This document shows, one piece after another, positions 935 to 37,317 of a stretch of 37,317 nucleotides of DNA. The notes below the pieces were generated by a model. It was not told the origin of the DNA, did no database searches, and saw only the letters and a program-made list of their open reading frames with translations. Every line of letters begins with the position of its first letter. Position 1 is the stretch's first letter. The position numbers and the translations under genes were made by a program. This stretch comes from a virus (taxonomy: Duplodnaviria > Heunggongvirae > Uroviricota > Caudoviricetes), in the IMG/VR virus record IMGVR_UViG_2721755496_000005. The stretch is one strand, 5' to 3'.

Positions 935-2620
935 GTGAATATAAACGTCGCCGAATTGTTAAATGGGAATTACATTCTGTTATTATTTGTGGTCCTCGCG
1001 CTTGGGCTATGTCTCGGAAAGTTACGACTTGGTTCGATCCAACTGGGTAATTCCATTGGCGTTTTAGTCGTATCGCTGTTATTAGGCCAACAACATTTCA
1101 GCATTAACACCGATGCGCTTAATCTTGGCTTTATGCTGTTTATTTTCTGCGTCGGGGTCGAAGCCGGACCGAACTTTTTTTCCATTTTTTTTCGCGATGG
1201 GAAAAATTACCTAATGTTAGCACTGGTGATGGTTGGCAGTGCGCTGGTGATCGCCTTAGGGTTAGGTAAGCTGTTTGGCTGGGATATTGGCCTGACGGCC
1301 GGTATGTTAGCAGGCTCTATGACGTCGACACCGGTTCTGGTCGGTGCTGGCGATACACTGCGTCATTCCGGCATGGAAAGCAGGCAGCTCTCACTGGCAC
1401 TGGATAATCTGAGCCTCGGGTATGCCTTAACCTATTTAATCGGTCTGGTGAGTTTGATTGTTGGTGCGCGTTACTTGCCGAAATTGCAGCATCAGGACTT
1501 ACAGACCAGCGCCCAGCAAATCGCCCGCGAACGTGGCCTGGACACTGATGCCAACCGTAAGGTTTATTTACCGGTGATCCGCGCCTATCGCGTCGGCCCG
1601 GAGCTGGTGGCCTGGACCGACGGCAAAAATCTGCGTGAACTGGGTATTTATCGACAAACCGGCTGCTACATTGAACGTATTCGACGTAACGGGATTCTGG
1701 CAAATCCAGACGGTGATGCCGTGCTACAAATGGGCGATGAAATAGCGTTGGTAGGCTATCCCGACGCCCATGCCCGACTCGATCCCAGCTTCCGTAACGG
1801 TAAAGAAGTTTTCGATCGTGACCTTCTCGACATGCGTATCGTCACTGAAGAAGTGGTCGTTAAAAACCATAACGCTGTAGGTAAACGTCTCGCACAACTG
1901 AAGTTGACCGATCACGGTTGCTTCCTTAACCGCGTCATTCGTAGCCAGATTGAGATGCCGATAGATGACAACGTCGTGCTTAACAAAGGTGACGTTTTAC
2001 AAGTCAGCGGTGATGCCCGTCGCGTAAAAACCATCGCCGATCGCATCGGCTTTATCTCGATTCACAGCCAGGTCACTGACCTGCTGGCATTTTGCGCCTT
2101 CTTTGTTATTGGGCTGATGATCGGGATGATCACCTTCCAGTTCAGCACATTCAGTTTCGGCATGGGGAACGCTGCCGGGTTGTTATTCGCCGGAATTATG
2201 CTGGGCTTTATGCGTGCTAACCACCCGACCTTCGGTTACATTCCGCAAGGTGCATTAAGCATGGTGAAAGAGTTCGGCTTGATGGTGTTTATGGCAGGCG
2301 TTGGTCTGAGCGCCGGTAGCGGTATTAATAACGGCCTGGGCGCGATTGGCGGTCAGATGTTGATTGCCGGATTAATTGTCAGTCTTGTGCCCGTGGTTAT
2401 CTGTTTCTTGTTCGGTGCTTATGTATTGCGAATGAACCGCGCACTGTTGTTCGGCGCAATGATGGGCGCACGCACCTGCGCGCCGGCAATGGAGATCATC
2501 AGTGATACAGCTCGCAGTAACATCCCTGCGCTGGGCTATGCGGGCACCTACGCAATCGCCAACGTCCTGCTGACGCTGGCAGGGACAATCATCGTCATGG
2601 TATGGCCAGGATTAGGATAA
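935..2620 (+). CDS. ybjL: Putative transport protein YbjL (AAE-family, duplicated membrane domains with central TrkA-C-like region)
   Basis: 561-aa ORF, hydrophobic N- and C-terminal halves; matches YbjL length and the grxA-ybjM-ybjL neighbourhood. Confidence 0.88.
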
Positions 2621-10144: not shown

Positions 10145-10717
10145 TCAGGGAGATTCATTGCTCTTATTTGCCGGAAATTTTCTATAAATAGTAGAAACGC
10201 CTACATCAAAAATCAGTGCAATACGCTGTCTTGATTCTCCGGCCTCAAGTAAACGCCCAATCTGTGCCCACTGTTCGGTGGTCAACTTAGGACGGCGTCC
10301 ACCTACTCTGCCTTTGGCACGAGCTGCAGCCAGCCCTGCCCTGGTACGTTCAACTATCAGTTCGCGTTCCATTTCAGCCAGGGCACCCATAACATGAAAA
10401 AAGAAACGGCCCATTGGGGTACTGGTATCAATACTATCAGTCAGGCTTCGGAAATTCACGCCACGCTGGCGCAACTCTTCTATCAGCGTAACAAGATGCC
10501 GCATACTGCGCCCCAGTCTGTCCAGCTTCCAGACAACCAGAGTGTCTCCTGCCGATAGTGTCCTGAGCAGTTTTTTAAGCCCCGGTCTGTCGGACTTAGT
10601 GCCACTGATTTTATCCTCAAAAATCCGCTCACATCCCGCGCAGTTCAGTGCATTACGTTGCAAATCGGTGTTCTGGTCATTTGTTGACACGCGTACATAG
10701 CCAATAAGCATGAGCAT
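10145..10717 (-). CDS. Site-specific DNA invertase (Hin/Gin/Cin/Pin-type serine recombinase)
   Basis: GYVRVST-DQ catalytic N-terminus, LVVWKLDRLGRS and SLTDSIDTS-MGRFFFHVMGALAEMERELI motifs, C-terminal HTH; about 190 aa. Confidence 0.9.
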   Translation of the reverse strand: MLMLIGYVRVSTNDQNTDLQRNALNCAGCERIFEDKISGTKSDRPGLKKLLRTLSAGDTLVVWKLDRLGRSMRHLVTLIEELRQRGVNFRSLTDSIDTSTPMGRFFFHVMGALAEMERELIVERTRAGLAAARAKGRVGGRRPKLTTEQWAQIGRLLEAGESRQRIALIFDVGVSTIYRKFPANKSNESP

Positions 10718-11122: not shown

Positions 11123-11306
11123 TCCAGTTACTTTGACTGAAGTAATCCCCGGTCTTCATGACGTGACCGGGGCTATTGAATTACCGGAGGACAATTGGTT
11201 TTTTACTATGACAGAAATTCCTCAGGGCATGGAGCTAACAATTAATGAGAAAGGCGAACCAATACTAATTGAGGTTAATCAGTCTCAGGGAATACAGGCC
11301 AAATAA
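11085..11306 (+). CDS. Short ORF in the position of an alternative tail-fibre assembly gene (U'-like); possibly truncated
   Basis: Follows the Sv'-like segment and converges on tfa; only about 66-73 aa against about 200 aa for a full Tfa; start uncertain (ATG 11085 or GTG 11109). Confidence 0.3.
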   Translation: MLFPGGFIVRLFNPVTLTEVIPGLHDVTGAIELPEDNWFFTMTEIPQGMELTINEKGEPILIEVNQSQGIQAK

Positions 11307-11883
11307 TATCAGGCGCGGTGCTGGTATCTGTTGCCGTCACCGCGTCAATGTAATCCAGCACCGTGTTAAGTCGGCTGGTTTCTGCCTGCGTCAGATTCCG
11401 TCCGGCCTGTAATTTCAGTTGAATCAGACTGATGGAAGCCATTGCAGTATCAATCAGCGACTGGCGTTGTGCTTCTGCTGCATCTACTGCGGCGCTATGC
11501 TGTGCCTCGGTATCCGTCACCCATTTCTCACCATCCCATTTATCGTATGGTGTTAACGGGGCGATAGTGGTTGTATTATCAGGGTAATCACCCGGAGCTG
11601 TGATTTCTTTTGATTCTCCTGTTTCGGTGCTAAAGACGATTTCACCGCGATGGTCTGGCACATATTCCCATGAGTTAAAATCTGCAGAACGGCAGATTGC
11701 ATAACCAGCCTTATGTGTGCCAGGAGCATCTAAACAGGAATATGCGGGGATACCGACACCCACAGCAAGATATTCAATTGATGCAGAAATATACTCCCGT
11801 GTCTCACTGTCATAGTTATAAACGGTAATCTCTCCTGCCTTTGTGGCAATAAATTTATTATTTAAGATAGCGTTATACATCAT
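11275..11883 (-). CDS. G: Tail fibre assembly protein (gpG / Tfa family)
   Basis: 202-aa ORF after H; C-terminal DTSTAPDIIWP motif resembles the conserved C-terminus of lambda Tfa-type chaperones. Confidence 0.82.
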   Translation of the reverse strand: MMYNAILNNKFIATKAGEITVYNYDSETREYISASIEYLAVGVGIPAYSCLDAPGTHKAGYAICRSADFNSWEYVPDHRGEIVFSTETGESKEITAPGDYPDNTTTIAPLTPYDKWDGEKWVTDTEAQHSAAVDAAEAQRQSLIDTAMASISLIQLKLQAGRNLTQAETSRLNTVLDYIDAVTATDTSTAPDIIWPVFPETD

Positions 11884-21908: not shown

Positions 21909-23675
21909 ATGAACACCACACTGACACCCGCAGATCTCGATCCCCGTCGGCAGGCCATGCTGCTGTACTTTCAGGGATACCGCGTAGCCCGCATTGCTGA
22001 AATGCTGGGCGAGAAAGTTGCAACCGTTCACAGCTGGAAAAAACGCGACAAGTGGGGTGACTATGGGCCGCTGGATCAGATGCAGCTCACCACCGCCGCA
22101 CGCTATTGCCAGCTCATTATGAAGGAGCACAAAGAAGGGAAAGATTTCAAAGAAATTGACCTGCTGGCACGCCAGTCGGAGCGCCACGCGCGGATCGGCA
22201 AGTTTAACAATGGCGGCAACGAAGCCGACTTAAACCCTAACGTCGCCAACCGCAACAAAGGGCCGCGCCGTCAGCCGGAAAAGAATGTTTTCACCGATGA
22301 ACAGATTGAGAAGCTGGAAGAAATCTTCCATTCCTCCATGTTCAACTACCAGCGCCACTGGTGGGAAGCTGGAAAAACCAACCGCATCCGTAATCTGCTG
22401 AAGTCACGCCAGATCGGCGCGACCTTTTACTTTGCCCGTGAAGCCCTGATTGACGCCCTGCTTACCGGACGTAACCAGATTTTCCTTTCTGCCAGTAAGG
22501 CACAGGCTCACGTCTTTAAGCAATACATCATCGACTTCGCCAAAGAAGTCGAGGTGGAGCTGAAAGGCGATCCGATGGTGCTTCCTAACGGGGCCACGCT
22601 TTACTTCCTCGGCACCAATGCCCGCACTGCCCAGAGTTATCACGGCAACCTGTATCTGGATGAATATTTCTGGATACCGAAATTCCAGGAGCTGCGCAAA
22701 GTGGCTTCCGGTATGGCTATTCACAAAAAATGGCGACAAACCTATTTTTCCACGCCATCCAGCCTGACACACAGTGCTTATCCGTTCTGGTCTGGTGCGC
22801 TGTTCAACCGTGGGCGCAACAAAGCCGATAAGGTGGACATCGACCTGTCCCACAGCAATCTGGCCCCCGGCCTGCTGTGCGCAGACGGGCAATACCGCCA
22901 GATAGTCACCGTGGAAGATGCAGTGCGCGGCGGATGTAACCTTTTCGACCTCGATCAGTTGCGCATGGAGTACAGCCCGGACGAATACCAGAACCTGCTG
23001 ATGTGCGAGTTTGTGGACGATCTCGCGTCCGTGTTCCCGCTCAGCGAGCTGCAGGCGTGCATGGTGGACAGTTGGGAAGTCTGGAGCGACTTTCATGCAC
23101 TGGCCCTGCGCCCGTTTGGCTGGCGCGAAGTGTGGATCGGTTATGACCCGGCAAAAGGTACGCAGAACGGCGACAGCGCCGGATGCGTGGTGGTGGCACC
23201 GCCAGCCGTGCCAGGCGGTAAGTTTCGCATTCTTGAACGTCACCAGTGGCGCGGGATGGACTTCCGCGCCCAGGCTGACGCCATCAAAAAACTGACCGAA
23301 CAGTACAACGTGACATACATCGGTATCGACTCAACCGGCGTCGGTCACGGGGTTTACGAGAACGTGAAAGCGTTTTTTCCTGCCGTCCGGGAGTTTGTCT
23401 ACAACCCCAACGTTAAAAACGCCCTGGTACTCAAGGCCTACGACATTATTAGCCACCGCCGCCTGGAGTTTGACGCAGGGCACACCGACATAGCGCAGTC
23501 CTTTATGGCAATCCGTCGCGCCACCACTGCCAGCGGCAACCGCCCGACCTATGAAGCCAGCCGCAGCGAAGAAGCCAGCCACGCCGATCTGGCCTGGGCA
23601 ACAATGCACGCACTGTTTAATGAACCGCTGCAGGGCGAGTCCGCCAATACCAGCAATATTGTGGAGATTTTTTGA
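21909..23675 (+). CDS. P: Terminase ATPase (large) subunit gpP
   Basis: 588-aa ORF divergent from O, overlapping Q by 4 nt. Confidence 0.9.
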   Translation: MNTTLTPADLDPRRQAMLLYFQGYRVARIAEMLGEKVATVHSWKKRDKWGDYGPLDQMQLTTAARYCQLIMKEHKEGKDFKEIDLLARQSERHARIGKFNNGGNEADLNPNVANRNKGPRRQPEKNVFTDEQIEKLEEIFHSSMFNYQRHWWEAGKTNRIRNLLKSRQIGATFYFAREALIDALLTGRNQIFLSASKAQAHVFKQYIIDFAKEVEVELKGDPMVLPNGATLYFLGTNARTAQSYHGNLYLDEYFWIPKFQELRKVASGMAIHKKWRQTYFSTPSSLTHSAYPFWSGALFNRGRNKADKVDIDLSHSNLAPGLLCADGQYRQIVTVEDAVRGGCNLFDLDQLRMEYSPDEYQNLLMCEFVDDLASVFPLSELQACMVDSWEVWSDFHALALRPFGWREVWIGYDPAKGTQNGDSAGCVVVAPPAVPGGKFRILERHQWRGMDFRAQADAIKKLTEQYNVTYIGIDSTGVGHGVYENVKAFFPAVREFVYNPNVKNALVLKAYDIISHRRLEFDAGHTDIAQSFMAIRRATTASGNRPTYEASRSEEASHADLAWATMHALFNEPLQGESANTSNIVEIF

Positions 23676-24700
23676 TGGGAAAGAGTAAGAAAAACCGCGC
23701 TGCGGCGACGAATCAGCTCAAGCATAAAAGCCAAACTTCAGCCGAAGCATTCAGCTTTGGCGATCCCGTTCCTGTTCTGGACCGCCGTGAACTGCTGGAC
23801 TATGTGGAATGCGTACAGATGGATCGCTGGTATGAGCCGCCCGTCAGCTTTGACGGACTGGCACGAACCTTCCGCGCCGCCGTGCATCACAGCTCACCAA
23901 TTGCGGTGAAATGCAACATTCTGACCAGTACCTACATCCCTCACCCGCTGCTCAGCCAGCAGGCTTTTTCACGTTTTGTGCAGGACTATCTGGTATTTGG
24001 TAACGCCTACCTGGAGAAACGCACGAACCGCTTCGGTGAAGTTATCGCCCTTGAGCCTGCTCTGGCAAAATACACCCGACGCGGGTTAGACCTGGATACC
24101 TACTGGTTTGTGCAATACGGTATGACAACCCAGCCGTATCAGTTCACGAAAGGCAGCATTTTTCATCTGATGGAACCTGACATCAACCAGGAGATCTACG
24201 GCCTACCAGGTTATCTTTCTGCCATTCCGTCAGCCCTGCTCAACGAGTCCGCCACGCTGTTCCGCCGGAAGTATTACATTAACGGCAGCCATGCAGGCTT
24301 CATCATGTACATGACCGATGCCGCGCAGAACCAGGAGGATGTGAACAACCTCCGCAATGCGATGAAAAGCGCCAAAGGCCCTGGCAACTTCCGCAACCTG
24401 TTTATGTACTCGCCTAACGGCAAAAAGGACGGGCTTCAGATCATCCCGTTGTCAGAAGTCGCGGCGAAGGATGAATTTCTGAACATCAAGAACGTCAGCC
24501 GTGATGACATGATGGCGGCACACCGCGTACCGCCTCAGATGATGGGAATTTTGCCGAATAATGTTGGGGGTTTTGGTGATGTGGAGAAGGCGAGCTGCGT
24601 CTTCGTAAGAAATGAACTATTACCACTTCAAAAAAGATTCATGGAAATAAACAGATGGCTTGGTCATGAAATTATAAATTTTGAAATATATACATTATAA
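23672..24700 (+). CDS. Q: Portal protein gpQ; last ~25 codons lie in AT-rich DNA and may be replaced
   Basis: 342-aa ORF after P; the 3' end from about 24615 is markedly AT-rich. Confidence 0.85.
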   Translation: MMGKSKKNRAAATNQLKHKSQTSAEAFSFGDPVPVLDRRELLDYVECVQMDRWYEPPVSFDGLARTFRAAVHHSSPIAVKCNILTSTYIPHPLLSQQAFSRFVQDYLVFGNAYLEKRTNRFGEVIALEPALAKYTRRGLDLDTYWFVQYGMTTQPYQFTKGSIFHLMEPDINQEIYGLPGYLSAIPSALLNESATLFRRKYYINGSHAGFIMYMTDAAQNQEDVNNLRNAMKSAKGPGNFRNLFMYSPNGKKDGLQIIPLSEVAAKDEFLNIKNVSRDDMMAAHRVPPQMMGILPNNVGGFGDVEKASCVFVRNELLPLQKRFMEINRWLGHEIINFEIYTL

Positions 24701-24705
24701 AACCC

Positions 24706-24728
24706 AACGGCATCACAATGATGCCGTT
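24706..24728 (-). terminator. Hairpin between convergent Q and the PIN-like cargo gene
   Basis: Perfect 10-bp stem aacggcatca / tgatgccgtt with a 3-nt loop, followed on the minus strand by a U-rich tract. Confidence 0.45.
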
Positions 24729-24737
24729 ATGAACGAA

Positions 24738-25799
24738 TTAATATTCAAAATTATTTTCTTCAATAGAGAACTCAATCCCTCGGGATAACTTATCAATATT
24801 CACATCAAATGCGATATCTGTTAATTCACCATCCTCGATTTCATACATAACTTCAATTTCAATATCGAAACTAATCTCTTGAACTTCAGTTCGTGTGGTT
24901 GTCTCCATTGGAATCATTACTTTATCTTCGCTATCCCAATACCCATTATTAAAGTCTGGACCAGAAACAGTAACTTCAAAATCTACAGAAACAGAGAAGG
25001 TCGCTAGACAATAATTATTGTCAATCTTAATTATTGATGGTTCAAAGTCATCAATATTGACGACTTCAAATGAATCCAATTCAGCGTCTTCCCAAGTTGA
25101 AACGTTATATCCATCGGCATCATTGAGTTGGGCAATTACGTCCGCTCTTATGTCTTCACGTTTGCTTTCGATAAACTGCATCAATTTATTACTTAATTCG
25201 TTTGTATGCGTATTGTATTCACCTAGAAACTTATCAAGTGAATCAATTTGATGAAGATTGTTTTTACCATCACAATAATTTTTTAAGTCACTATCCTCAG
25301 AAATGATATACACATCTTCATCATTAACAAATCGCTCTACCGCAGCTAAAGTGATTGCATCAGGAAACTCACTTTTTTTCTTATTTTGCCCAAATGGTGG
25401 TTCTTTGCCAAAGTATTTATCTAAAACCTCATTAAGATCTATCACTTCTATTGTAGCTAATTTGGCGTGACATCCTTTCAAAAAATCATCAAAAACTTTT
25501 TGTGCTGCTTCGTGAATTTCATGTTCGTTAAATTGCTGAAAAAAACCATGGAGCGGTCCATTATCAATACTATTCAAAAGCCTAGCTTTTCTTTGTACTG
25601 TGTTTATAGCCTGCAGAGCATCCTTTATTGATTCCTCTATTTTACCTTTTACTTCTCTCTCTACAACTGTAGTTGTAATTAAGACTAAATCACCTTTCGC
25701 ACATAATTCATGGAAAGCTTTAAATGCTACCCCCTCAAAATGAAGACCAGCCTTTACGTACGTTTGTGTGTCAATAAATACCTTATTTGTTTTAAGCAT
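24738..25799 (-). CDS. Cargo protein: putative PIN-like nuclease domain with a strongly acidic C-terminal half
   Basis: 353 aa in AT-rich DNA. The N-terminal half has acidic positions spaced like the PIN catalytic residues (D10, E47/E49, D147 in DAITLAAV, D169/D171 in YIISEDSD). The C-terminal half has repeated hydrophobic-acidic strand motifs such as FDIEIEV and FDVNID. Confidence 0.5.
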   Translation of the reverse strand: MLKTNKVFIDTQTYVKAGLHFEGVAFKAFHELCAKGDLVLITTTVVEREVKGKIEESIKDALQAINTVQRKARLLNSIDNGPLHGFFQQFNEHEIHEAAQKVFDDFLKGCHAKLATIEVIDLNEVLDKYFGKEPPFGQNKKKSEFPDAITLAAVERFVNDEDVYIISEDSDLKNYCDGKNNLHQIDSLDKFLGEYNTHTNELSNKLMQFIESKREDIRADVIAQLNDADGYNVSTWEDAELDSFEVVNIDDFEPSIIKIDNNYCLATFSVSVDFEVTVSGPDFNNGYWDSEDKVMIPMETTTRTEVQEISFDIEIEVMYEIEDGELTDIAFDVNIDKLSRGIEFSIEENNFEY

Positions 25800-25920
25800 A
25801 CTAATCCTAATAAGTTTTAAGATCCGCTACAATTGTTTATGTTTATTTTTTATCAATAATCATACGTAGTTAAGATTATCCATGTCGAAAAATTAAATCA
25901 ACTTCAATTTATCCTTAAGC

Positions 25921-25944
25921 GCGCGCTCGTATCCCCGCCACGCC
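25921..25944 (-). other. Candidate cos (cohesive end) site
   Basis: Minus strand GGCGTGGCGGGGATACGAGCGCGC; the first 13 nt equal the 186 cos sequence as recalled (GGCGTGGCGGGGAAAGCAT); sits in a GC-normal island between AT-rich cargo genes. Confidence 0.4.
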
Positions 25945-26266
25945 TGCCCGCTTTATGTAGTGGTTTTCATGCACCTGCATGTTCTACGTAAAAGCCCGCT
26001 AGTTCTGGCGAGCCTTAGCAAAAACGATCCTTAAACGATCATGCGATTTCATGCAGCATAGTCATGCACTGTCTAAGAGAAGTGAAAGTCCGTATCTGAA
26101 TGACCACTTGAAAAACGAAACATACAGACTTACAAAGATGAAGCTCTACTGTGAGCGAGGAACATACATAGTTGCTCTGTAATAGCCAAATTTTAAGCAG
26201 GAAATCTCTTTTTTATGACAAAACTATAAAGAAAAACAGACCGTTTCATCTCTCAATGAAACTATA

Positions 26267-27844
26267 CTACAATACTTTTCTCTCGATGGTATTTTTAATG
26301 GTCAACATATCTTTAGGAATACTTTTTTTCCCCTCTATACGTATGGTAAACACAAAAAGAATAACGGCTGATCTCACAATTTTCATGAGTTGTAAGAGCT
26401 GTTTCTCAAACTTTTCTTTCTCAATAAACCTCACCTTATCAAAAAATCCATAAGAATTATATAAATCAACTAACATGTCTTTCTCGTGAATAACTAACAG
26501 TTTATGTTCTAAATCATTCCTCCATTCTTTAAAAAAAGCAAGCTCACCATTTTTATCATTCAAATCCATAGCAATACTAAACAACCCCAGCAATCCTTTA
26601 TTATTTATTTTGTTTATTTTAAGCTTTCTTTTTTCATCACTAATCCGCCAGAAGTTATGAAAGTATATATGTCCTCTATCTGGTTTTAAATCAAATAATT
26701 GACACAGAGCAACTGCTATTTTATCCAAGATACCAAAGCAAGCTCTAAATGCAACCCTTAACTTCTCAACATTTTCATACAATATTTCTCCATTATACAA
26801 TTCAGAATAACATACCTCCGAATCCTCATCAAAAAACTCACTATCAACCTTATATTCAAAAAACATTTTTCGTGCTAAGGAATACTCAGCTTTAAGTCTA
26901 TTTAACACCATTTCCATTGGCACTATAAAATCACCAAACACACCTTCCTCGGTGGTCGCAATAGTTATATTATCTTTAGATGACGCATAACAATTGCAAT
27001 ATAGCGAATGATCAGACAACATTAGATTATTATCTATACAAAACCTCTGGTAGTTTGATAAAGTATCATACTCCTCCTGCGTGAGCCTTTCATCTGTACT
27101 TATATCCTCTATGCCATATACACATGATTCACTCAATATACTTTCGTTGTACTTTATTTTTCTTTGAAGAGCAACCTTCCATGAAGGAAAACATTTCCCT
27201 GACTTTATTGCACACTCATAACCTCGAATAACTTCTTTAATCATTTTATATGTATATGTTGTAGATAATTCATTAAGCAATTCTAATGCCTCAGATCTGT
27301 TTACCCACGCCTGAGGAATTGAGTTATCAATAGATATTGCTTGTTCATAATAATCCATTGATTCAGATATACGATATTGTTTTTTTAATACATTAGCTAG
27401 ATTAACTATTAAATCAGGGGGCACCCATCCATCTTCTTGTGAAAGTTTAAACGCTTTCCAGTAATTATTTTTTACATCATTCAGCTTAATGAAACTATCA
27501 ATATCTGCATTGTCATTAGGATTAAAATCAAGAACTGCGCTCATTCCATTTGCCAAGTTATAGTAATATAAAGATTCTTTCATTATAGTCAGAAATTCAT
27601 TTTTATTGTTTATAAAGATATTTAAGCCTTCCTCCGCTATATTTTTTACATTACTAAAATTTCCGATATCAATAAGATTTCCGGCCAAATTAGATAATAT
27701 AATTATTCTATTTTCTTTGATTGTATTTATCTCATCGATACCGTTAAGAATATCCTTTACATTTTTATAGGCAGAATCAAATGAACCTGCATTAATAAGA
27801 TCATCTACGAACCCCATTTTTGAAACAACATAGTTGATATCCAT
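26267..27844 (-). CDS. Cargo protein: TPR-like N-terminal region plus C-terminal HEPN-like domain (R-x4-H); candidate abortive-infection RNase
   Basis: 525 aa in AT-rich DNA; start has an AAGAGG RBS. Contains WRNDLEH (R-x4-H) in the C-terminal quarter and a TPR-like segment YYEQAISIDNSIPQAWVNRSEAL. Confidence 0.55.
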   Translation of the reverse strand: MDINYVVSKMGFVDDLINAGSFDSAYKNVKDILNGIDEINTIKENRIIILSNLAGNLIDIGNFSNVKNIAEEGLNIFINNKNEFLTIMKESLYYYNLANGMSAVLDFNPNDNADIDSFIKLNDVKNNYWKAFKLSQEDGWVPPDLIVNLANVLKKQYRISESMDYYEQAISIDNSIPQAWVNRSEALELLNELSTTYTYKMIKEVIRGYECAIKSGKCFPSWKVALQRKIKYNESILSESCVYGIEDISTDERLTQEEYDTLSNYQRFCIDNNLMLSDHSLYCNCYASSKDNITIATTEEGVFGDFIVPMEMVLNRLKAEYSLARKMFFEYKVDSEFFDEDSEVCYSELYNGEILYENVEKLRVAFRACFGILDKIAVALCQLFDLKPDRGHIYFHNFWRISDEKRKLKINKINNKGLLGLFSIAMDLNDKNGELAFFKEWRNDLEHKLLVIHEKDMLVDLYNSYGFFDKVRFIEKEKFEKQLLQLMKIVRSAVILFVFTIRIEGKKSIPKDMLTIKNTIERKVL

Positions 27845-28094: not shown

Positions 28095-28122
28095 CCCCCA
28101 TCAGAATGAATCCTCTTGGGGG
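28095..28122 (-). terminator. Possible terminator of the tum-like / dinI-like operon
   Basis: Stem ccccc / ggggg with an 18-nt loop, then a moderately U-rich tract on the minus strand; weak. Confidence 0.3.
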
Positions 28123-28131
28123 CAACGTTTC

Positions 28132-28365
28132 TTAATGCAGCCAGCTGTCGTCTTCCCACACCTTCTGCATAATTTTCATCACTTGCTTCCTTTCTTCGTC
28201 CAGTTGCAGTCCGGTTAGTTCCACACCGTTAGAGCTACCTTTGCGAATGCGAATTACCGTTTTGGGATACAGGGGGCACAGATTGCGGTAAAGCTCGGAT
28301 TCAAGGGCGTCCAGGGTAGACTGGCTAATCTTCTGCTCTTTATCGATCATTATTTCAATGCGCAT
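28132..28365 (-). CDS. DinI-like protein
   Basis: Start at internal ATG (MRIEIMIDK...); about 77 aa; matches the DinI pattern MRIEVTI...LxxELxxR...QxWExxDxW. Confidence 0.75.
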   Translation of the reverse strand: MRIEIMIDKEQKISQSTLDALESELYRNLCPLYPKTVIRIRKGSSNGVELTGLQLDEERKQVMKIMQKVWEDDSWLH

Positions 28366-28375
28366 AAAAGTCACC

Positions 28376-28564
28376 TCAGCTGATGACATCCATTGAGCGG
28401 TTGTATTCGTGGGTTCTGATTTTTGCCATGAGTTCATCTGTTAGTTCAGAAACCCACTGCAGAGCCAGCCCCTTCTCTTCATCACTACACTCACTAGCCG
28501 CTACAAGCTTAAGAAAAAAATCAATGCGCTGGAGCTTCAAAGACTCCAAAAAATAGTCCTGCAT
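28376..28564 (-). CDS. Small Tum-like candidate antirepressor
   Basis: 62-aa ORF directly downstream of a consensus LexA box and upstream of the dinI-like gene, the arrangement of the 186 tum operon; assigned by context only. Confidence 0.4.
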   Translation of the reverse strand: MQDYFLESLKLQRIDFFLKLVAASECSDEEKGLALQWVSELTDELMAKIRTHEYNRSMDVIS

Positions 28565-28717: not shown

Positions 28718-29074
28718 TTAATACAGGTTCCGCCACTTATCATCTTCCCGCAAACACTGGTTCCGATAGAAGATACGCAAGCCTGCTCCTGACGGAATAC
28801 TGCCGCCGCGAAGGAGTAAATCGACCTCTTTCTCGCTACCATCAAATCCTCTGGACTTCAGCTCATAGACGAGCTGCAGTCGCTGATGGTCTGTAATTCG
28901 CTGTTTGTAGTCTTTACGCCGTTTCGGTTTCACCAGGCGTAACCTTGCAGCCAGTTCCCGGCGCTCTTTTTTGTTCATACTGTGCAGGTAATCGTGCAAC
29001 TCCTTGTCATCCATGCTGGTAATGTCCGTTCTGGGGTCCCCATCAGCTGATTTATCTTTCTCCTGTTGGTTCAA
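28718..29074 (-). CDS. Hypothetical phage protein
   Basis: 118-aa ORF overlapping the gpA stop; basic and charged; no family recognised. Confidence 0.5.
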
Positions 29075-31158
29075 ATTTTCAGCAAGGGGACAGTTATTGC
29101 CACGAGTCCAAGGGGACAGTTATTGCCACGAGTCCAAGGGGCGCAAGCGCCCTGGTCGGCTGCCGCCTCCTGAACATCAACGGCCTTACGAACCATTTTC
29201 CACTTCACGGCATGAGTGCAGATCTTGCCCTCTGCAATAGGTGACCAGATGCCATAAATACGAATGCCGTGATCGCCATAGGCGGTCGGCTCTTCGTTGA
29301 TTTCATAAGCGGTTCTGATGAGGTGATATTTGCGGGGAACCAGTACGCCGCCCTGCTTCATGATGTAGGTGGCAAAACAACCAGCATCAGCAGCAGCCAG
29401 GATGGCATCAAGGCGTGGGTTATCCAGTACCGGCGCACCTGCTTTTTTGTCCCCCTGTTGCCTTGCCGCCTGACCAGCCAGCAATCGCAGTTCACGGTAA
29501 GCCTGACGCCCCGGAATGCCAAAGAAGCGGAATTGCTGAACACGATGCAGAGACGCCCAGGCATTAACGTATTCAGCATTATCACGCAGGGATTTCCCCG
29601 TTTCCTTGCTGATCTCGCCAGCCAGACCACGCCCGTCAATGTTCTTACTGATGTATTTCGCGATGTAGCTTGTTGGCGTTCCTTTGCGCGGGTTAATCAA
29701 CTCAGACTTAAAGCGCGGCCCAGTGTTATTGCCCAGCTCCTCGCGGTCTTCACGGATGGCAAACTTACGCAGTAATGCAGTGATGGCACGGCGGTCTTTT
29801 TTGCGCATGAAACACAACAGGTGCCAGTGAACTGTGCCGTCATGATGCGGCTCAGCCACCCGCACGCCATACCAGCGCAACCCGGCTTTGTGCATCGCCT
29901 TACGAAATGCAGCAAACATGCCGACCAGATAATCGCTGCTTTGTCTTACCGTCGCGTTTGTCCAGGTCGGGTTTGGTCTGCCGTTATTGAGCGTGGAATG
30001 GAAACGTGACGGACAGGTGATGGTGTAGAAAACGGCGCAGTCACCGCGCATTTCCGCGATAAGCTCCAGACCTTTAACACAGGCCATCATCTCATTGCGG
30101 CGATGCGCCGGGTTGCTGCTGCTGGCGTTTACCACATCCTCCATGTCCAGCGTGTCGCCGTCTTCGTTCACCAGTTCATGAGAACGGAAAAACTCCAGCG
30201 ACTTACGGCGCTGCTCACGTTTATGCATCACGGCTTCATAGCTGACATAGGGAGATGCTTTTTTGCTGACCAGGCAGACAGCACGCAACTGCTCTTCCCG
30301 CCATTCGCAACGCATCCTCCATAATTTCCGATACCACCAATCGGCGCACAACATACGCGCCAGCGAACCCGGAATGAGTTCATAGGGCACGGGTTTACGG
30401 CGGTTTCTTTTCCGACGGAGTTGCTCAAACGCAGGAGGGATTACATCCAGACGCAGGGTTTCCGCTGCCACCTTTTCCCATGTCTTGCGGATTTCTTCTG
30501 GCTTAACGTCATCGGTGGCATACAAATCACCACAAGCTGCATCAAGGCACATGCTCATATGCGCGGCAACAAGGGTAGACAGGCGCTTCACCTGATCCTG
30601 ACTCATTTCAGGCAGGATCAGCAGGCCGTCCAGCCCTTCATGGCTTGCCATAAAGCGAAAAGAAGTGGATAGCTGACTCTCGCGTACATGCTCCAGTCGT
30701 TCCAGACATGGCTTAATCGTCTCACGCAAATAGCGGGAATAAGCCTTTGGCCTGCCCAGGCTGCTGAAGTATTCAATACGTTGCATCAGCGGCTTGCTGA
30801 TATGGGAAGGCTGGGCGTTGACGTCCGCCAGAATGACCATATCCGGATTAAAACGCTGCTGCTCATGCGCCAGCTTTGCCCGACTAATGAGCTTATCCTG
30901 CTCGATTTCGCGCTGGACAGGATCACGGGATTCATTAAAGAAATAACGCTCCCAGACCTGATCACTCAGCGCCTCACGGCGCAGCTGTTCCTGCTCGTTA
31001 TCGGCAGCGTACAGAGTGATCAGGTTTGAAAGCGCAGAAACCGGCGCAACTTCCGCCGGGTCCAGATAAGGGTTAATGGCCTTTTTCGGGCTGCTCCATG
31101 AGAATGCTGCTGCGACCTCGTTAAAGCCGCTGCAGTTGTTCATATCAGCATGGCTCAT
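29071..31158 (-). CDS. A: Replication initiation endonuclease gpA (rolling-circle initiator)
   Basis: 695-aa ORF with the VHWHLL and YIAKYISKN motifs recalled as characteristic of P2/186 gpA-type initiators; size close to 186 A. Confidence 0.88.
29085..29136. repeat. Perfect 26-bp tandem direct repeat (2 copies plus 5-nt partial third) within the 3' end of gene A
   Basis: aggggacagttattgccacgagtcca at 29085..29110 and again at 29111..29136, then agggg. Confidence 0.9.
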
Positions 31159-33908: not shown

Positions 33909-34505
33909 ATGTCAACATCAAAGTACCCAAATGAGATCAAAATAAATCCCAATAAAGGTGGTAAGGCTGCGATTGAGCGATTAGTCGAAGCTTATGGCTT
34001 TACGACACGACAGGCTTTAGCTGATCACTTGGAAGTATCAAAAAGCACTCTGGCGAACAGGTATTTGCGGGATACGTTTCCTGCAGACTGGATAATCCAA
34101 TGTGCTCTTGAAACAGGAACCTCACTGAAATGGTTAACCACCGGGCAAGGCCTTAAGCAAAGCTCGCTGACAGCAGCTACAGAAGAGCTTGCCAAGTTTC
34201 GCCTTACCGCAGGCAAAATGATTGAAGATGGTTCATATGTCTTCGATTCATCATTTCTTCCTGCAAATCTTTCATCACCAATTGTTATTCAGGATGGGCT
34301 CGTCACATACATTTGTGATCAAAAATTTTCTGAAGTACTTGATGGGCACTGGTTAATCAACATCGACGGAACCTATTCCATTCGAAAAATCACAAAGCTT
34401 CCAAAAGGTATGATTAAAATTACAAGTACAGAGAATAGCTTTGAATGTGCATTTTCTGATATTGAAGTAGTTGCTTGTATAAGAAGTACAATAGTTTCAA
34501 ATTAA
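33909..34505 (+). CDS. cI: Immunity repressor, 186 CI-like
   Basis: 198 aa; the pattern EAYGF...LA-H...S-LANRY...CALETG-SLKWLTTGQG resembles the 186 CI N-terminal domain as recalled. Confidence 0.7.
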   Translation: MSTSKYPNEIKINPNKGGKAAIERLVEAYGFTTRQALADHLEVSKSTLANRYLRDTFPADWIIQCALETGTSLKWLTTGQGLKQSSLTAATEELAKFRLTAGKMIEDGSYVFDSSFLPANLSSPIVIQDGLVTYICDQKFSEVLDGHWLINIDGTYSIRKITKLPKGMIKITSTENSFECAFSDIEVVACIRSTIVSN

Positions 34506-34525: not shown

Positions 34526-36202
34526 ATGAATTCATTTTCCATCGTTATATTCTTATTAGCATTTCTCGCCCCCATTCTAGCTGTAATATTATTTAAGCAA
34601 AGCAAAAAACATAAAGCGGCTATAGATACCTTGACAGCTAACAACATAGCCCTTTCCAACCAACTGAAAGAAAATCAAGAAGAATTAGCACAGACTGTAC
34701 GAGATCTATCAGAGCTTGAAGGACGAGCTGCACCATTATGGCAATACGTAGAATTGCACAGCGCAGTGATGGAAGCAGAGAATAAGATAAAAAATGCAGA
34801 CTCAATAGCCAGGCAAAAAATAGAAGAAGCCCAAATAAAGGCTGCTAAGACAGTAAACGAAGCAAATTATCAAGCTCAGATAAAAATAAGCAACGCTAAT
34901 AGCGAAGCTATAGCAATTACTAAAGACGCTCGCGATGCACGCCTGAAAGCTAAAGAACGTCTTGATAATGCCAATAGTAAAGCAAATGAGCTGATCTCAA
35001 ATGCTAATGACAATGCAGTGAAAATTATTTCCGATGCAGAAGAAAGAGCAAAAGAGATTGCTGGTTCAGCATATGAAGCTAAAGAGTTTGCAGAAAAATA
35101 TGAAGCAGTTGCCAAATCAATGAAAAATAAAATTGAAGGTTATGGTGATGAATGGATCATCCCTAACCGTAGCGTTCTCGATGAATTGGCAGAAAATTAT
35201 GAGTTTACAGATGCAGGCAAGGAATTACAAAAAGCCAGGGAGTTAACAAAATCATTAATAAAAACTAATAAAGCTGCTTCGTGTGATTATGTTGAACAAA
35301 ACAGGCGTAATACTGCTATCAACTTTGTTTTAGATGCCTTCAATGGAAGAGTTGACAGTATTTTATCAAAAGTCAAACACAACAATTTTGGAAAACTTTC
35401 CCAAGAGATAAAAGATGCGTTTCAACTTGTAAATTACAATGGTTCTGCCTTTAGGTCCGCAAAAATAAGTGACATCTATCTTCAAGCTCGACTCAACGAG
35501 CTAAAATGGGGTGTTGCAGTTAATGAAATTATGCTCGAAGAAAAAGAAGAGCAAAGAAGGATTAAAGAACAACTTCGTGAAGAGGAAAGAGCTCGTAGGG
35601 AGTATGAAAAAGCGATAAAAGAAGCTGAAAAAGAAGAGAAAGCTATTCAGCAAGCTATAAATAAAGCAACAAAAGAGCTTATGCTTGCAAATGAAGAACA
35701 ACGCTTAGCTTTAGAGCAAAAAATAGCTGAACTACAGTTAAAATATGAAGAAGCTGAAGCTAAAAACCAACGAGCTATTTCTATGGCTCAACAAACTAGA
35801 TCAGGCCACGTTTATATAATTAGTAATATTGGCTCATTTGGCGAAGATGTATATAAAATTGGAATGACACGCCGCCTTGAACCACTTGATCGTGTTCGTG
35901 AACTCGGTGATGCTAGTGTTCCTTTTTCGTTCGATGTTCATGCGATGATTTATAGTGATGATGCACCATCATTAGAAAATCATCTGCATAAAGTCTTCAA
36001 CGAAAAACAGGTCAATAAAATTAACTCACGAAAAGAGTTTTTCAACGTAAATATTAAAGAAATTAAGTCTGTTATTGAAGATATGAACATCAACGCACAA
36101 TGGACAATGTTTGCGGAAGCGAAAGAATATAGAGAGTCACTGGCGATTGAGCAAGAGCGCAAAGCAGCAACTTCCGCCAACGATGAACTGCATGTTGCTT
36201 AG
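34526..36202 (+). CDS. Cargo protein: N-terminal transmembrane helix, long coiled coil, C-terminal GIY-YIG-like (T5orf172/MUG113-type) domain
   Basis: 558 aa in AT-rich DNA, 21 bp after cI with AAAGGA RBS; hydrophobic N-terminus, about 380 aa of heptad-like Lys/Glu/Ala-rich sequence, then GHVYIISN...YKIGMTRR...R-x3-E-L...N. Confidence 0.6.
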   Translation: MNSFSIVIFLLAFLAPILAVILFKQSKKHKAAIDTLTANNIALSNQLKENQEELAQTVRDLSELEGRAAPLWQYVELHSAVMEAENKIKNADSIARQKIEEAQIKAAKTVNEANYQAQIKISNANSEAIAITKDARDARLKAKERLDNANSKANELISNANDNAVKIISDAEERAKEIAGSAYEAKEFAEKYEAVAKSMKNKIEGYGDEWIIPNRSVLDELAENYEFTDAGKELQKARELTKSLIKTNKAASCDYVEQNRRNTAINFVLDAFNGRVDSILSKVKHNNFGKLSQEIKDAFQLVNYNGSAFRSAKISDIYLQARLNELKWGVAVNEIMLEEKEEQRRIKEQLREEERARREYEKAIKEAEKEEKAIQQAINKATKELMLANEEQRLALEQKIAELQLKYEEAEAKNQRAISMAQQTRSGHVYIISNIGSFGEDVYKIGMTRRLEPLDRVRELGDASVPFSFDVHAMIYSDDAPSLENHLHKVFNEKQVNKINSRKEFFNVNIKEIKSVIEDMNINAQWTMFAEAKEYRESLAIEQERKAATSANDELHVA

Positions 36203-36285: not shown

Positions 36286-37317
36286 ATGGCAGTACGAAAA
36301 CTCACCACAGGAAAATGGCTTTGCGAATGTTACCCCGCCGGACGTAGTGGACGTCGTGTGCGTAAACAATTCGCCACCAAAGGCGAAGCTCTGGCTTTTG
36401 AGCGTCACACGATGGAAGAAACCGAAGCAAAGCCCTGGCTGGGTGAATCAGTGGATCGTCGAACACTGAAAGACGTGGTTGAACTATGGTTCAAACTACA
36501 TGGTAAATCTCTGACAGCTGGGCAGCATGTCTATGACAAATTGCTGTTGATGGTTGACGCTCTGGGCAATCCCCTTGCAACCGATCTCACCTCTAAAATG
36601 TTTGCCCACTATCGAGATAAACGTCTGACAGGAGAGATCTACTTCAGCGAAAAATGGAAGAAAGGAGCAAGCCCGGTCACCATTAACCTGGAGCAAAGCT
36701 ATCTAAGTAGTGTTTTTAGCGAACTATCCCGCCTGGGCGAATGGTCGTATCCGAACCCACTGGAGAACATGCGAAAATTCACCATCGCAGAAAAAGAGAT
36801 GGCATGGCTTACCCATGAGCAGATTGTTGAATTGCTGGCTGATTGCAAACGTCAGGACCCAATTCTGGCACTGGTAGTTAAGATATGCTTAAGCACAGGC
36901 GCACGTTGGCGTGAAGCCGTAAATCTTACCCGCTCACAGGTGACCAAATACCGAATTACCTTTGTAAGAACGAAGGGGAAGAAAAACAGAAGCATCCCTA
37001 TCAGTAAAGAGCTTTACGAAGAGATCATGGCGCTTGATGGGTTCAATTTCTTTACAGACTGCTATTTTCAATTTTTATCCGTGATGGAAAAAACGTCTAT
37101 CGTGCTCCCTCGCGGTCAACTGACACACGTTCTGCGCCATACGTTTGCGGCGCACTTCATGATGTCGGGTGGAAATATCCTGGCCTTACAAAAAATTCTC
37201 GGGCATCACGATATAAAAATGACTATGCGTTACGCACATCTGGCACCGGATCACCTGGAAACTGCATTACGGTTTAATCCGCTGGCAACACTACCAACAT
37301 CAATAGCAAGTTTTTGA
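36286..37317 (+). CDS. int: Tyrosine integrase (P2/186 family)
   Basis: 343 aa; C-terminal catalytic region with LTHVLRHTFA...HHDIKMTMRYAHL (R, H-x-x-R, Y); stop codon is the last triplet of the window. Confidence 0.9.
   Translation: MAVRKLTTGKWLCECYPAGRSGRRVRKQFATKGEALAFERHTMEETEAKPWLGESVDRRTLKDVVELWFKLHGKSLTAGQHVYDKLLLMVDALGNPLATDLTSKMFAHYRDKRLTGEIYFSEKWKKGASPVTINLEQSYLSSVFSELSRLGEWSYPNPLENMRKFTIAEKEMAWLTHEQIVELLADCKRQDPILALVVKICLSTGARWREAVNLTRSQVTKYRITFVRTKGKKNRSIPISKELYEEIMALDGFNFFTDCYFQFLSVMEKTSIVLPRGQLTHVLRHTFAAHFMMSGGNILALQKILGHHDIKMTMRYAHLAPDHLETALRFNPLATLPTSIASF

Follow-up and report, generated by a model that had tools for sequence, protein, structure and literature searches.

An AT-rich allele of the portal gene 3′ end is linked to adjacent cargo at the gpA-cos-gpQ hotspot of P2-like prophages

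Introduction

The gpA-cos-gpQ region around cos is described as a variable defence hotspot of P2-like prophages in two papers (Rousset et al. 2022, PMC9122126; NAR 2026, PMC13586616), and a survey of the diversity of P2-like viruses exists (PMC13100340). PMC9122126 and PMC13586616 place the limits of the hotspot at complete genes (gpQ and gpA). In the passages of all three papers that deal with the portal, gpQ, cos, or GC content, variability or AT-richness of the Q 3′ end is not mentioned, nor is a link between this end and the cargo, although the older P2 literature may differ in this respect. In P2 and 186, the stop codon of Q lies about 170 bp from the 19-nt cos end, and this spacer holds a terminator only. 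The Pseudomonas phage phiCTX resembles the locus described here in that its cytotoxin gene ctx is a lower-GC gene that lies, convergently, between cosL and Q; however, the dip in GC3 of its Q tail is small (0.78 vs 0.86), with no sign of tail replacement. Core-gene flanks are also known to hitchhike with loci under diversifying or balancing selection, as in the case of gnd beside the Escherichia coli O-antigen cluster. Our locus shares with that example a gradient of diversity toward a hypervariable cassette and a cassette genealogy shared by the conserved neighbor; it differs in that the stretch of Q concerned is about 100 nt long, saturated with divergence, cargo-like in composition, and located at one of four slot edges.

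Here, we present an analysis of the portal gene Q and its surroundings in a stretch of 37,317 nt (the window), which is a complete E. coli P2-like prophage in the orientation opposite to that of the P2 map. Because P, Q, cos, DinI, and gpA follow one another in the P2 order, the locus fits the position of the gpA-cos-gpQ hotspot. As in the known hotspot, variable AT-rich DNA with presumed defence-type cargo (PIN_12 and TPR-HEPN) is present on both sides of cos; unlike in the published descriptions, we distinguish two independently varying slots with a sharp-edged cos island of 150 bp between them.

Results

The features of the window are summarized in Table 1. The Q protein is nearest to the Fels-2/Elveevirus/Kapieceevirus group and has 92-96% amino acid identity with the Q proteins of Peduoviridae prophages. 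Gene P, which is located upstream from Q, served as the compositional control.

Table 1. Features of the window around the portal gene and the two cargo slots
Feature	Position	Strand	Remarks
Terminase large subunit gene P (P2 gpP homologue), GC-normal core	21909-23675	+	588-aa ORF; relatives annotated as terminase ATPase subunit
Portal gene Q, whole	23675-24700	+	341 aa
Q conserved body, codons 1-310	23675-24605	+	GC 0.53, GC3 0.65
Q cargo-linked tail allele, codons 311-341 plus stop	24606-24700	+	GC 0.24, GC3 0.13; homologous portal C-terminus
Stem-loop between the convergent Q and PIN genes	24705-24729	-	Likely intrinsic terminator of the PIN gene
Slot 1 cargo gene, 353-aa PIN_12 protein	24738-25799	-	GC 0.34, GC3 0.25
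Promoter-like site 5′ of the PIN gene, TCGACA-18-TATGAT	25859-25888	-	10/12 consensus matches
Conserved cos island	25918-26070		Bounds slot 1 on the right and slot 2 on the left
Second cargo slot, old/tin position of P2	26071-28121	-	TPR + HEPN_LA2681 gene inside
Gene for 525-aa TPR + HEPN_LA2681 protein	26267-27844	-	GC 0.31; Pfam HEPN_LA2681 E = 1.9e-38
DinI-like gene flanking slot 2	28132-28437	-	Pfam DinI E = 4.9e-22
Replication gene A (gpA), far anchor of the hotspot	29071-31158	-	Pfam Phage_GPA E = 4.9e-128

Across the end of Q, the GC content per 200-nt window decreases from 0.52 (24400-24599) over 0.40 (24500-24699) to 0.29 (24600-24799) and, with the exception of the cos island, remains at 0.26-0.36 up to about 27900. 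The Q body up to the VFVRN motif has a GC content of 0.532 and a GC3 of 0.646; for the last 34 codons, the corresponding values are 0.255 and 0.176. A maximum-likelihood change point was found at 24605/24606 (codon 310/311), directly 3′ of the GTC TTC codons in the VFVRN motif, where GC changes from 0.533 to 0.239 and GC3 from 0.648 to 0.129. Chance composition of the tail is ruled out by the GC3 counts of head and tail (199/109 vs 6/27; Fisher test, p = 3e-7) and by a comparison with 831 overlapping windows of 34 codons from P and the Q body, in which the lowest GC3 is 0.47 compared with 0.18 in the tail. The tail also uses AGA, ATA, and CTA, which are rare codons in E. coli. An overlapping minus-strand ORF can be ruled out as the cause because only one such ORF, of 43 aa (24495-24626), grazes the tail. 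A preliminary description had suggested from the sequence that the end of Q and the DNA downstream are much more AT-rich than the rest of Q and that a recombination junction may lie inside Q. Both suggestions agree with our data: GC3 falls from 0.65 to 0.13 and stays low through the cargo, and there is a mosaic and compositional junction at about 24606. The span proposed at that time (24615-24700, or ~25 codons) was nearly right, but the true extent is 31 codons plus the stop codon.

At the protein level, no gaps are needed to align the window Q tail (VFVRNELLPLQKRFMEINRWLGHEIINFEIYTL) with those of P2, 186, and all other relatives, and seven other portals can be aligned as well. The tail is identical to P2 in 22 of 33 residues, with the pattern VFVRNELxPLQKRxxEINxWLGxEIIxFxxYxL. 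The consensus over 164 distinct tails is VFVRNELxPLQKRxxELNxWLGxxVIxFxxYxL; about 20 of the first 33 positions in these tails are invariant or nearly so, and all of them are present in the window. About 10 tail positions, by comparison, have an entropy of 2.3-3.5 bits in the 164 tails, while the Q body is 96-99% conserved. With 341 aa, Q is not truncated compared with its relatives (340-347 aa), and the Pfam model Phage_portal (PF04860) matches residues 95-330 with 61.3 bits against a cut-off of 39.1 (E = 1.2e-16). No PDB sequence homologue of Q was found by single sequence or by profile. An AlphaFold2 model based on 43 close homologues is poor overall (mean pLDDT 38); in this model, the tail helix alone is confident, with a long helix predicted at residues 303-329 (pLDDT about 80). 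Based on these comparisons, Q is intact, and its tail is predicted to encode a working portal C-terminus. The earlier idea that the cargo had replaced the native C-terminus of Q therefore does not hold; rather, the tail is homologous to those of the P2 and 186 portals, and related portals share its C-terminal residues. Similarly, because the native end of Q has not been swapped for nonhomologous sequence, a gene-truncating moron or cargo insertion is ruled out. Judging from the alignments, the swapped part is instead a diverged AT-rich allele of the same tail that is co-inherited with the cargo.

In the window, 1.2 kb of AT-rich DNA with the PIN_12 gene separates Q from cos. All DNA from P2 coordinate 27 to the Q stop codon is new, and only the cos 19-mer plus the 7 bp CGCGCGC can still be aligned with P2 and 186. 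Consequently, the proposed replacement of the native Q-to-cos spacer is correct, except that 7 bp beside cos were retained. The PIN protein matches Pfam PIN_12 (PF16289/DUF4935) with E = 1.5e-25. PADLOC gave no match for the PIN protein and a weak TPR match only for the HEPN protein; because of this, the defence role of the cargo is presumed from domain content and location. The PIN_12 and TPR+HEPN_LA2681 domains are characteristic of defence-type nucleases, and both proteins are presumably defence-type cargo. The hairpin between the convergent genes has a stem of 11 bp, after which the minus strand continues with the T-run GGTTTTATAA. The hairpin lies 5 bp past the Q stop codon, and its T-run is the complement of the last codons of Q. 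With an RNA folding energy of -14.3 kcal/mol (z = -5.0; none of 200 shuffled sequences is as stable), this hairpin is a likely intrinsic terminator of the PIN gene. Promoter-like sites are no more common in the region than in shuffled sequences, and the TCGACA-18-TATGAT site is a weak candidate. Altogether, the cassette unit 24606-25917 comprises the Q-tail allele, the hairpin, the PIN_12 gene, and the promoter region.

The region 24450-26050 is 98.8-99.9% identical in 35 complete E. coli genomes, in which the genes are annotated as "phage portal protein" and "PIN domain-containing protein." PIN homologues with 52-56% amino acid identity occupy the same slot in other P2-like elements; they are convergent with Q, lie 40-46 bp past the Q stop codon, and are found beside other Q heads and other AT-rich tails, indicating a long residence in this slot. 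Outside the E. coli cluster, the nearest PIN relatives have ≤56% identity and are spread across Gammaproteobacteria. Hosts of the PIN family range from low to high GC, e.g., Vibrio and Pseudomonas. A 40%-identical PIN_12 homologue is encoded in E. coli at L145 4001-5071 among genes for AcaB, a topoisomerase, DUF3577, and DUF2859; this ICE- or plasmid-like context suggests that the PIN cargo family circulates on other mobile elements as well.

We compared the cos region with the left ends of P2 and 186 by alignment. Its 19-nt cohesive-end sequence is located at 25926-25944 (reverse complement GGCGTGGCGGGGATACGAG), and CGCGCGC at 25919-25925. To the right of slot 1, almost all loci with other cargo become homologous again at 25914-25920, with outliers at 25898-25911. 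The homology of the cos island ends at 26060-26074 in about three quarters of the loci and extends to 26137-26169 in the rest. Slot 2 ends abruptly on the right at 28122 in 39 of 59 loci, and the 3′ end of DinI, which is not AT-rich, has 96-97% identity right up to this edge. Thus, the Q side is the only fuzzy, in-gene slot edge, while the other three are sharp. A general model in which any cargo flank decays is ruled out because DinI and both cos flanks are conserved up to sharp edges. In three loci that share the PIN cassette with the window (L009-L011), slot 2 is filled with other DNA measuring about 70 bp, 0.8 kb, or 2 kb, which argues that the two cos-flanking slots vary independently. 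As a separate observation, the positions of three of the four slot edges (25918-25920, 26067-26070, and 28122) hardly differ among most related loci, and only 7 bp past the cos 19-mer are conserved on the Q side. These observations suggest either a very tight functional limit of cos or site-specific capture.

To place the window among its relatives, we used a sample of 80 IMG/VR loci encoding close Q relatives plus about 40 others, annotated phages included. Residues 1-307 of Q have 96-99% amino acid identity among the relatives listed, and the range is 92-100% for the first 70 full-length matches to Q in IMG/VR. Among 84 loci, the tails comprise 63 different protein and 69 different DNA sequences. 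Over codons 1-300, nucleotide diversity per 10-codon block is 0.04-0.13, with the exception of 0.24 at codons 11-20; in the last four 10-codon blocks, it increases to 0.22, 0.29, 0.41, and 0.47, and the mean GC3 decreases from about 0.65 to about 0.3. All 65 distinct cassettes have a lower GC3 in the tail than in the head (mean 0.32 vs 0.64), and the GC contents of tail and Q-cos spacer are correlated (Spearman 0.55, p = 2e-6). The GC change point was at codons 305-314 in 38 of 68 cases and at codons 320-339 in 20 of 68. Synonymous sites of the tail are saturated between cassettes and almost invariant within them. Gene content differs between close prophages: relatives with 92% identical Q heads have 65 distinct Q-cos spacers of 165-3503 bp, and slot 2 is unlike in L009-L011. 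In L024, the sole close relative whose spacer is short (165 bp) and GC-normal, the GC3 of the tail is 0.56. The in-gene AT-rich junction is general among the sampled close Q relatives with Q-cos cargo.

The tail is linked to the cargo next to it. In 3270 pairs of loci with different cargo, tail identity is ≤0.76 (median 0.62) at a head identity of 0.92; for the 35 pairs that share their cargo, the median tail identity is 0.99, even when head identity is as low as 0.80-0.81. The clearest case of a shared cassette with diverged heads is L029/L083 (tail 0.96, cargo coverage 0.99, head 0.81). Among 5426 complete E. coli genomes, the window tail (24598-24740) is present at ≥99% identity in 35, and the next-best tails are ≤75% identical; the same number, 35, hold the full stretch from the Q end over PIN to cos, with PIN in every row and the same strains listed. 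Linkage is not absolute family-wide, as L049/L059 and L040/L044 have the same cargo and different tails. Because the junction is common to all 35 E. coli genomes with the cassette and analogous junctions are present in dozens of cassettes, it does not reflect one recent insertion.

The three relatives with the PIN cassette (L009-L011) are near-identical to the window from about 24000 to 25750; leftward, they leave this identity at differing points in Q/P, and rightward from about 25750. This pattern resembles the footprint expected of homologous recombination tracts that include a variable length of the Q body. Since the left breakpoints vary within Q/P, recent crossovers were not at 24606. 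Rather, 24606 is an old boundary between the homogenized body and the cassette-linked tail. Together, the cassette in the diverged backbones of L029/L083 and the variable crossovers in the conserved flanks of L009-L011 are the characteristics of module exchange by homologous recombination.

In clades without cargo between Q and cos, the tail behaves like the rest of the gene. Tail and head identities are 0.98-0.99 vs 0.97 for P2/S164/12W, 0.95 vs 0.95 for 186/EtG, and 0.73 vs 0.77 for P2/186, and in the P2 and 186 clades, the tail GC3 of 0.69-0.82 is at or above that of the head. These GC-normal tails, which are no more diverged than the heads, argue against a tail that is fast-evolving or AT-rich by nature, and the P2 and 186 clades rule out intrinsically rapid evolution of the portal tail. 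Tail GC3 decreases little or not at all in phiCTX, RsoM1USA, phiE094, and a Mannheimia phage, all of which have cargo between Q and cos. A scan of genome contigs with the last 49 Q residues gave 32 loci, which served as host-GC controls and among which no donor of the tail was revealed. In Xenorhabdus prophages, whose host has about 44% GC, head GC3 is 0.56-0.68, tail GC3 is 0.65-0.75, and the tails are conserved. A protein search with the tail alone gave ORFs of 33-74 aa only, i.e., partial or orphan portal fragments, and identified no donor portal.

Discussion

Our findings suggest that the last 95 nt of Q probably evolve as part of an old haplotype of Q tail plus cargo that is exchanged by homologous recombination. 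According to this model, the haplotype 24606-25917 would move between related prophages with one crossover in the conserved Q/P body and the other between the start of the PIN gene and the cos island, or beyond. Because tails from different cassettes are only about 62% identical in DNA, recombination would be unable to part the tail from its cargo, which would result in complete linkage. About 20 of the 33 tail positions are nearly invariant, and synonymous sites and free positions would have drifted to the AT-rich composition of the cargo; a candidate cause is AT-biased mutation without recombinational homogenization. We favor such long-term evolution in place beside the cargo over import from an AT-rich phage as the origin of the AT-richness. 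AT-rich tails retain the clade-typical K12 R13 in 24 of 29 cases, while P2 and 186 have D12 and Xenorhabdus has S12 K13, and tail GC3 values range continuously from 0.13 to 0.62, being higher the more a tail resembles the GC-normal consensus (rho 0.52). Several observations speak against the model: only the Q tail, and not DinI or the cos flanks, has diverged and become AT-rich; the clustered change points look more like fixed crossovers than smooth decay; and neither the tails of L049/L059 and L040/L044 nor the small or absent GC3 drop in phiCTX, RsoM1USA, phiE094, and the Mannheimia phage is in line with it.

Among the alternatives, the one that we consider least improbable, although still unlikely, is that the tail and the cargo were imported jointly from a P2-like phage of an AT-rich host by a crossover in the conserved stretch coding for GGFGDVEKA, in which case the tail would be the 3′ end of the donor Q. 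The GC3 of the tail (0.13-0.18) and its choice of AGA, ATA, and CTA match the cargo, the change points cluster at codons 305-314, and in L029/L083 the shared tail and cargo join the 81%-identical heads near the head/tail boundary. However, a full-length AT-rich Q was not found, Xenorhabdus tails are GC-normal, and the Mannheimia Q tail is not close. Moreover, the K12 R13 signature of the clade is kept in AT-rich tails, and at least 60 distinct AT-rich tails would need as many AT-rich donor lineages. The PIN gene points in the same direction, with its nearest relatives beyond the E. coli cluster ≤56% identical and in hosts of low to high GC, and with its old residence in the slot; the continuum of tail GC3 also argues against import. 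It is quite improbable that AT-richness of the tail was selected locally by overlap with the cargo terminator, H-NS-type silencing, or insulation of convergent transcription: the terminator hairpin of the PIN gene would account for at most about 10-25 nt of the 95 nt even though it lies 5 bp past the Q stop codon with its T-run overlapping the last codons of Q, and the 3′ end of DinI abuts cargo in the same way without any such effect, despite the correlation between tail GC and cargo GC.

Two further explanations concern the tail as a protein. The hypervariability might be adaptive, with the portal C-terminus diversifying, e.g., to escape portal-sensing immunity, or being matched to the defence gene; about 10 tail positions at 2.3-3.5 bits in a protein with a 96-99% conserved body and the complete tail-cargo linkage in E. 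coli would fit this idea. We regard it as very unlikely, given that the variable positions shift to AT-coded residues (FYMINK 0.375 vs 0.304), as mutation pressure predicts, that PIN-type cassettes share no variable tail residues beyond what is expected from common descent, and that cargo-less clades have no excess divergence of the tail. Finally, an illegitimate insertion of the cargo that deleted the 3′ end of Q and supplied a foreign, nonportal C-terminus along with the spacer is barely credible. Such an event would explain the sharp compositional break in Q and a spacer that is new but for 7 bp by cos; it is contradicted by the 22/33 match to P2, the presence of all invariant positions, the length of 341 aa vs 340-347, and the Pfam match through residue 330.

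Returning to the haplotype of tail plus cargo, we tentatively suggest, as a possibility rather than an expectation, that the tail is a natural internal control, i.e., a piece of a GC-normal core gene locked to nonrecombining accessory DNA and drifting AT-rich. A much more doubtful idea is that the C-terminal helix of the portal is a functional partner of the adjacent defence gene and that selection, not lack of homology, keeps tail and cargo together. In that case, each cargo would spare the tail allele linked to it and act against P2-like competitors with other tails; alternatively, tails would diversify to escape portal-sensing immunity. Of these two ideas, drift is the more probable. If it is correct, then the AT-richness of accessory DNA can arise in place, without a foreign origin.

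For the window itself, the outcome is ordinary, with an intact Q and cargo in a known slot, and we regard the linked AT-rich Q tail as a feature of a known hotspot that had so far gone unremarked. Nevertheless, the edge of this hotspot, which until now was drawn at the portal gene, sits about 95 nt inside an essential gene. As each cargo type has its own portal-tail allele, the tail can serve as a compact barcode of cargo in prophage surveys, and portal phylogenies and gene-delimited extractions of the hotspot should drop or flag the last ~35 codons. Moreover, because a segment of GC-normal ancestry appears to have converged on cargo-like AT-richness, the origin of AT-richness in accessory DNA becomes testable in a small system.

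Several additional observations were made in the course of this analysis. In two IMG/VR loci (L066 and L074), the Q frame stops after 198 aa, although residues 1-307 of the window protein match at 97%; the short Q could be due to a frameshift, a pseudogene, or an assembly error. In degraded P2-like prophages, orphan ORFs of 63-71 aa encode portal tails (L091 8001-8192 and L089 8001-8216). In L091, the order is ogr, a tail-fiber fragment, the Q tail, an AIPR gene, and gpA, beside a gene for an Asp-Al_Ex/TrkA_C transporter that resembles window 935-2620; here, the cargo and its Q tail have persisted longer than the structural genes. Within the window, a third AT-rich island (34526-36202; GC about 0.36-0.39) lies between the genes for a CI-type repressor (33909-34505) and an integrase (36286-37317), the ORF of which extends to the final base of the window. 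This island codes for a 558-aa DUF4041 + T5orf172/MUG113 protein and is probably more accessory or defence cargo. Lastly, a gene for a serine DNA invertase (Resolvase + HTH_7) adjoins a tail-fiber assembly gene in a lower-GC stretch (10145-10717 and 11275-11883), and this pair suggests an invertible tail-fiber segment of the Gin/Cin type.
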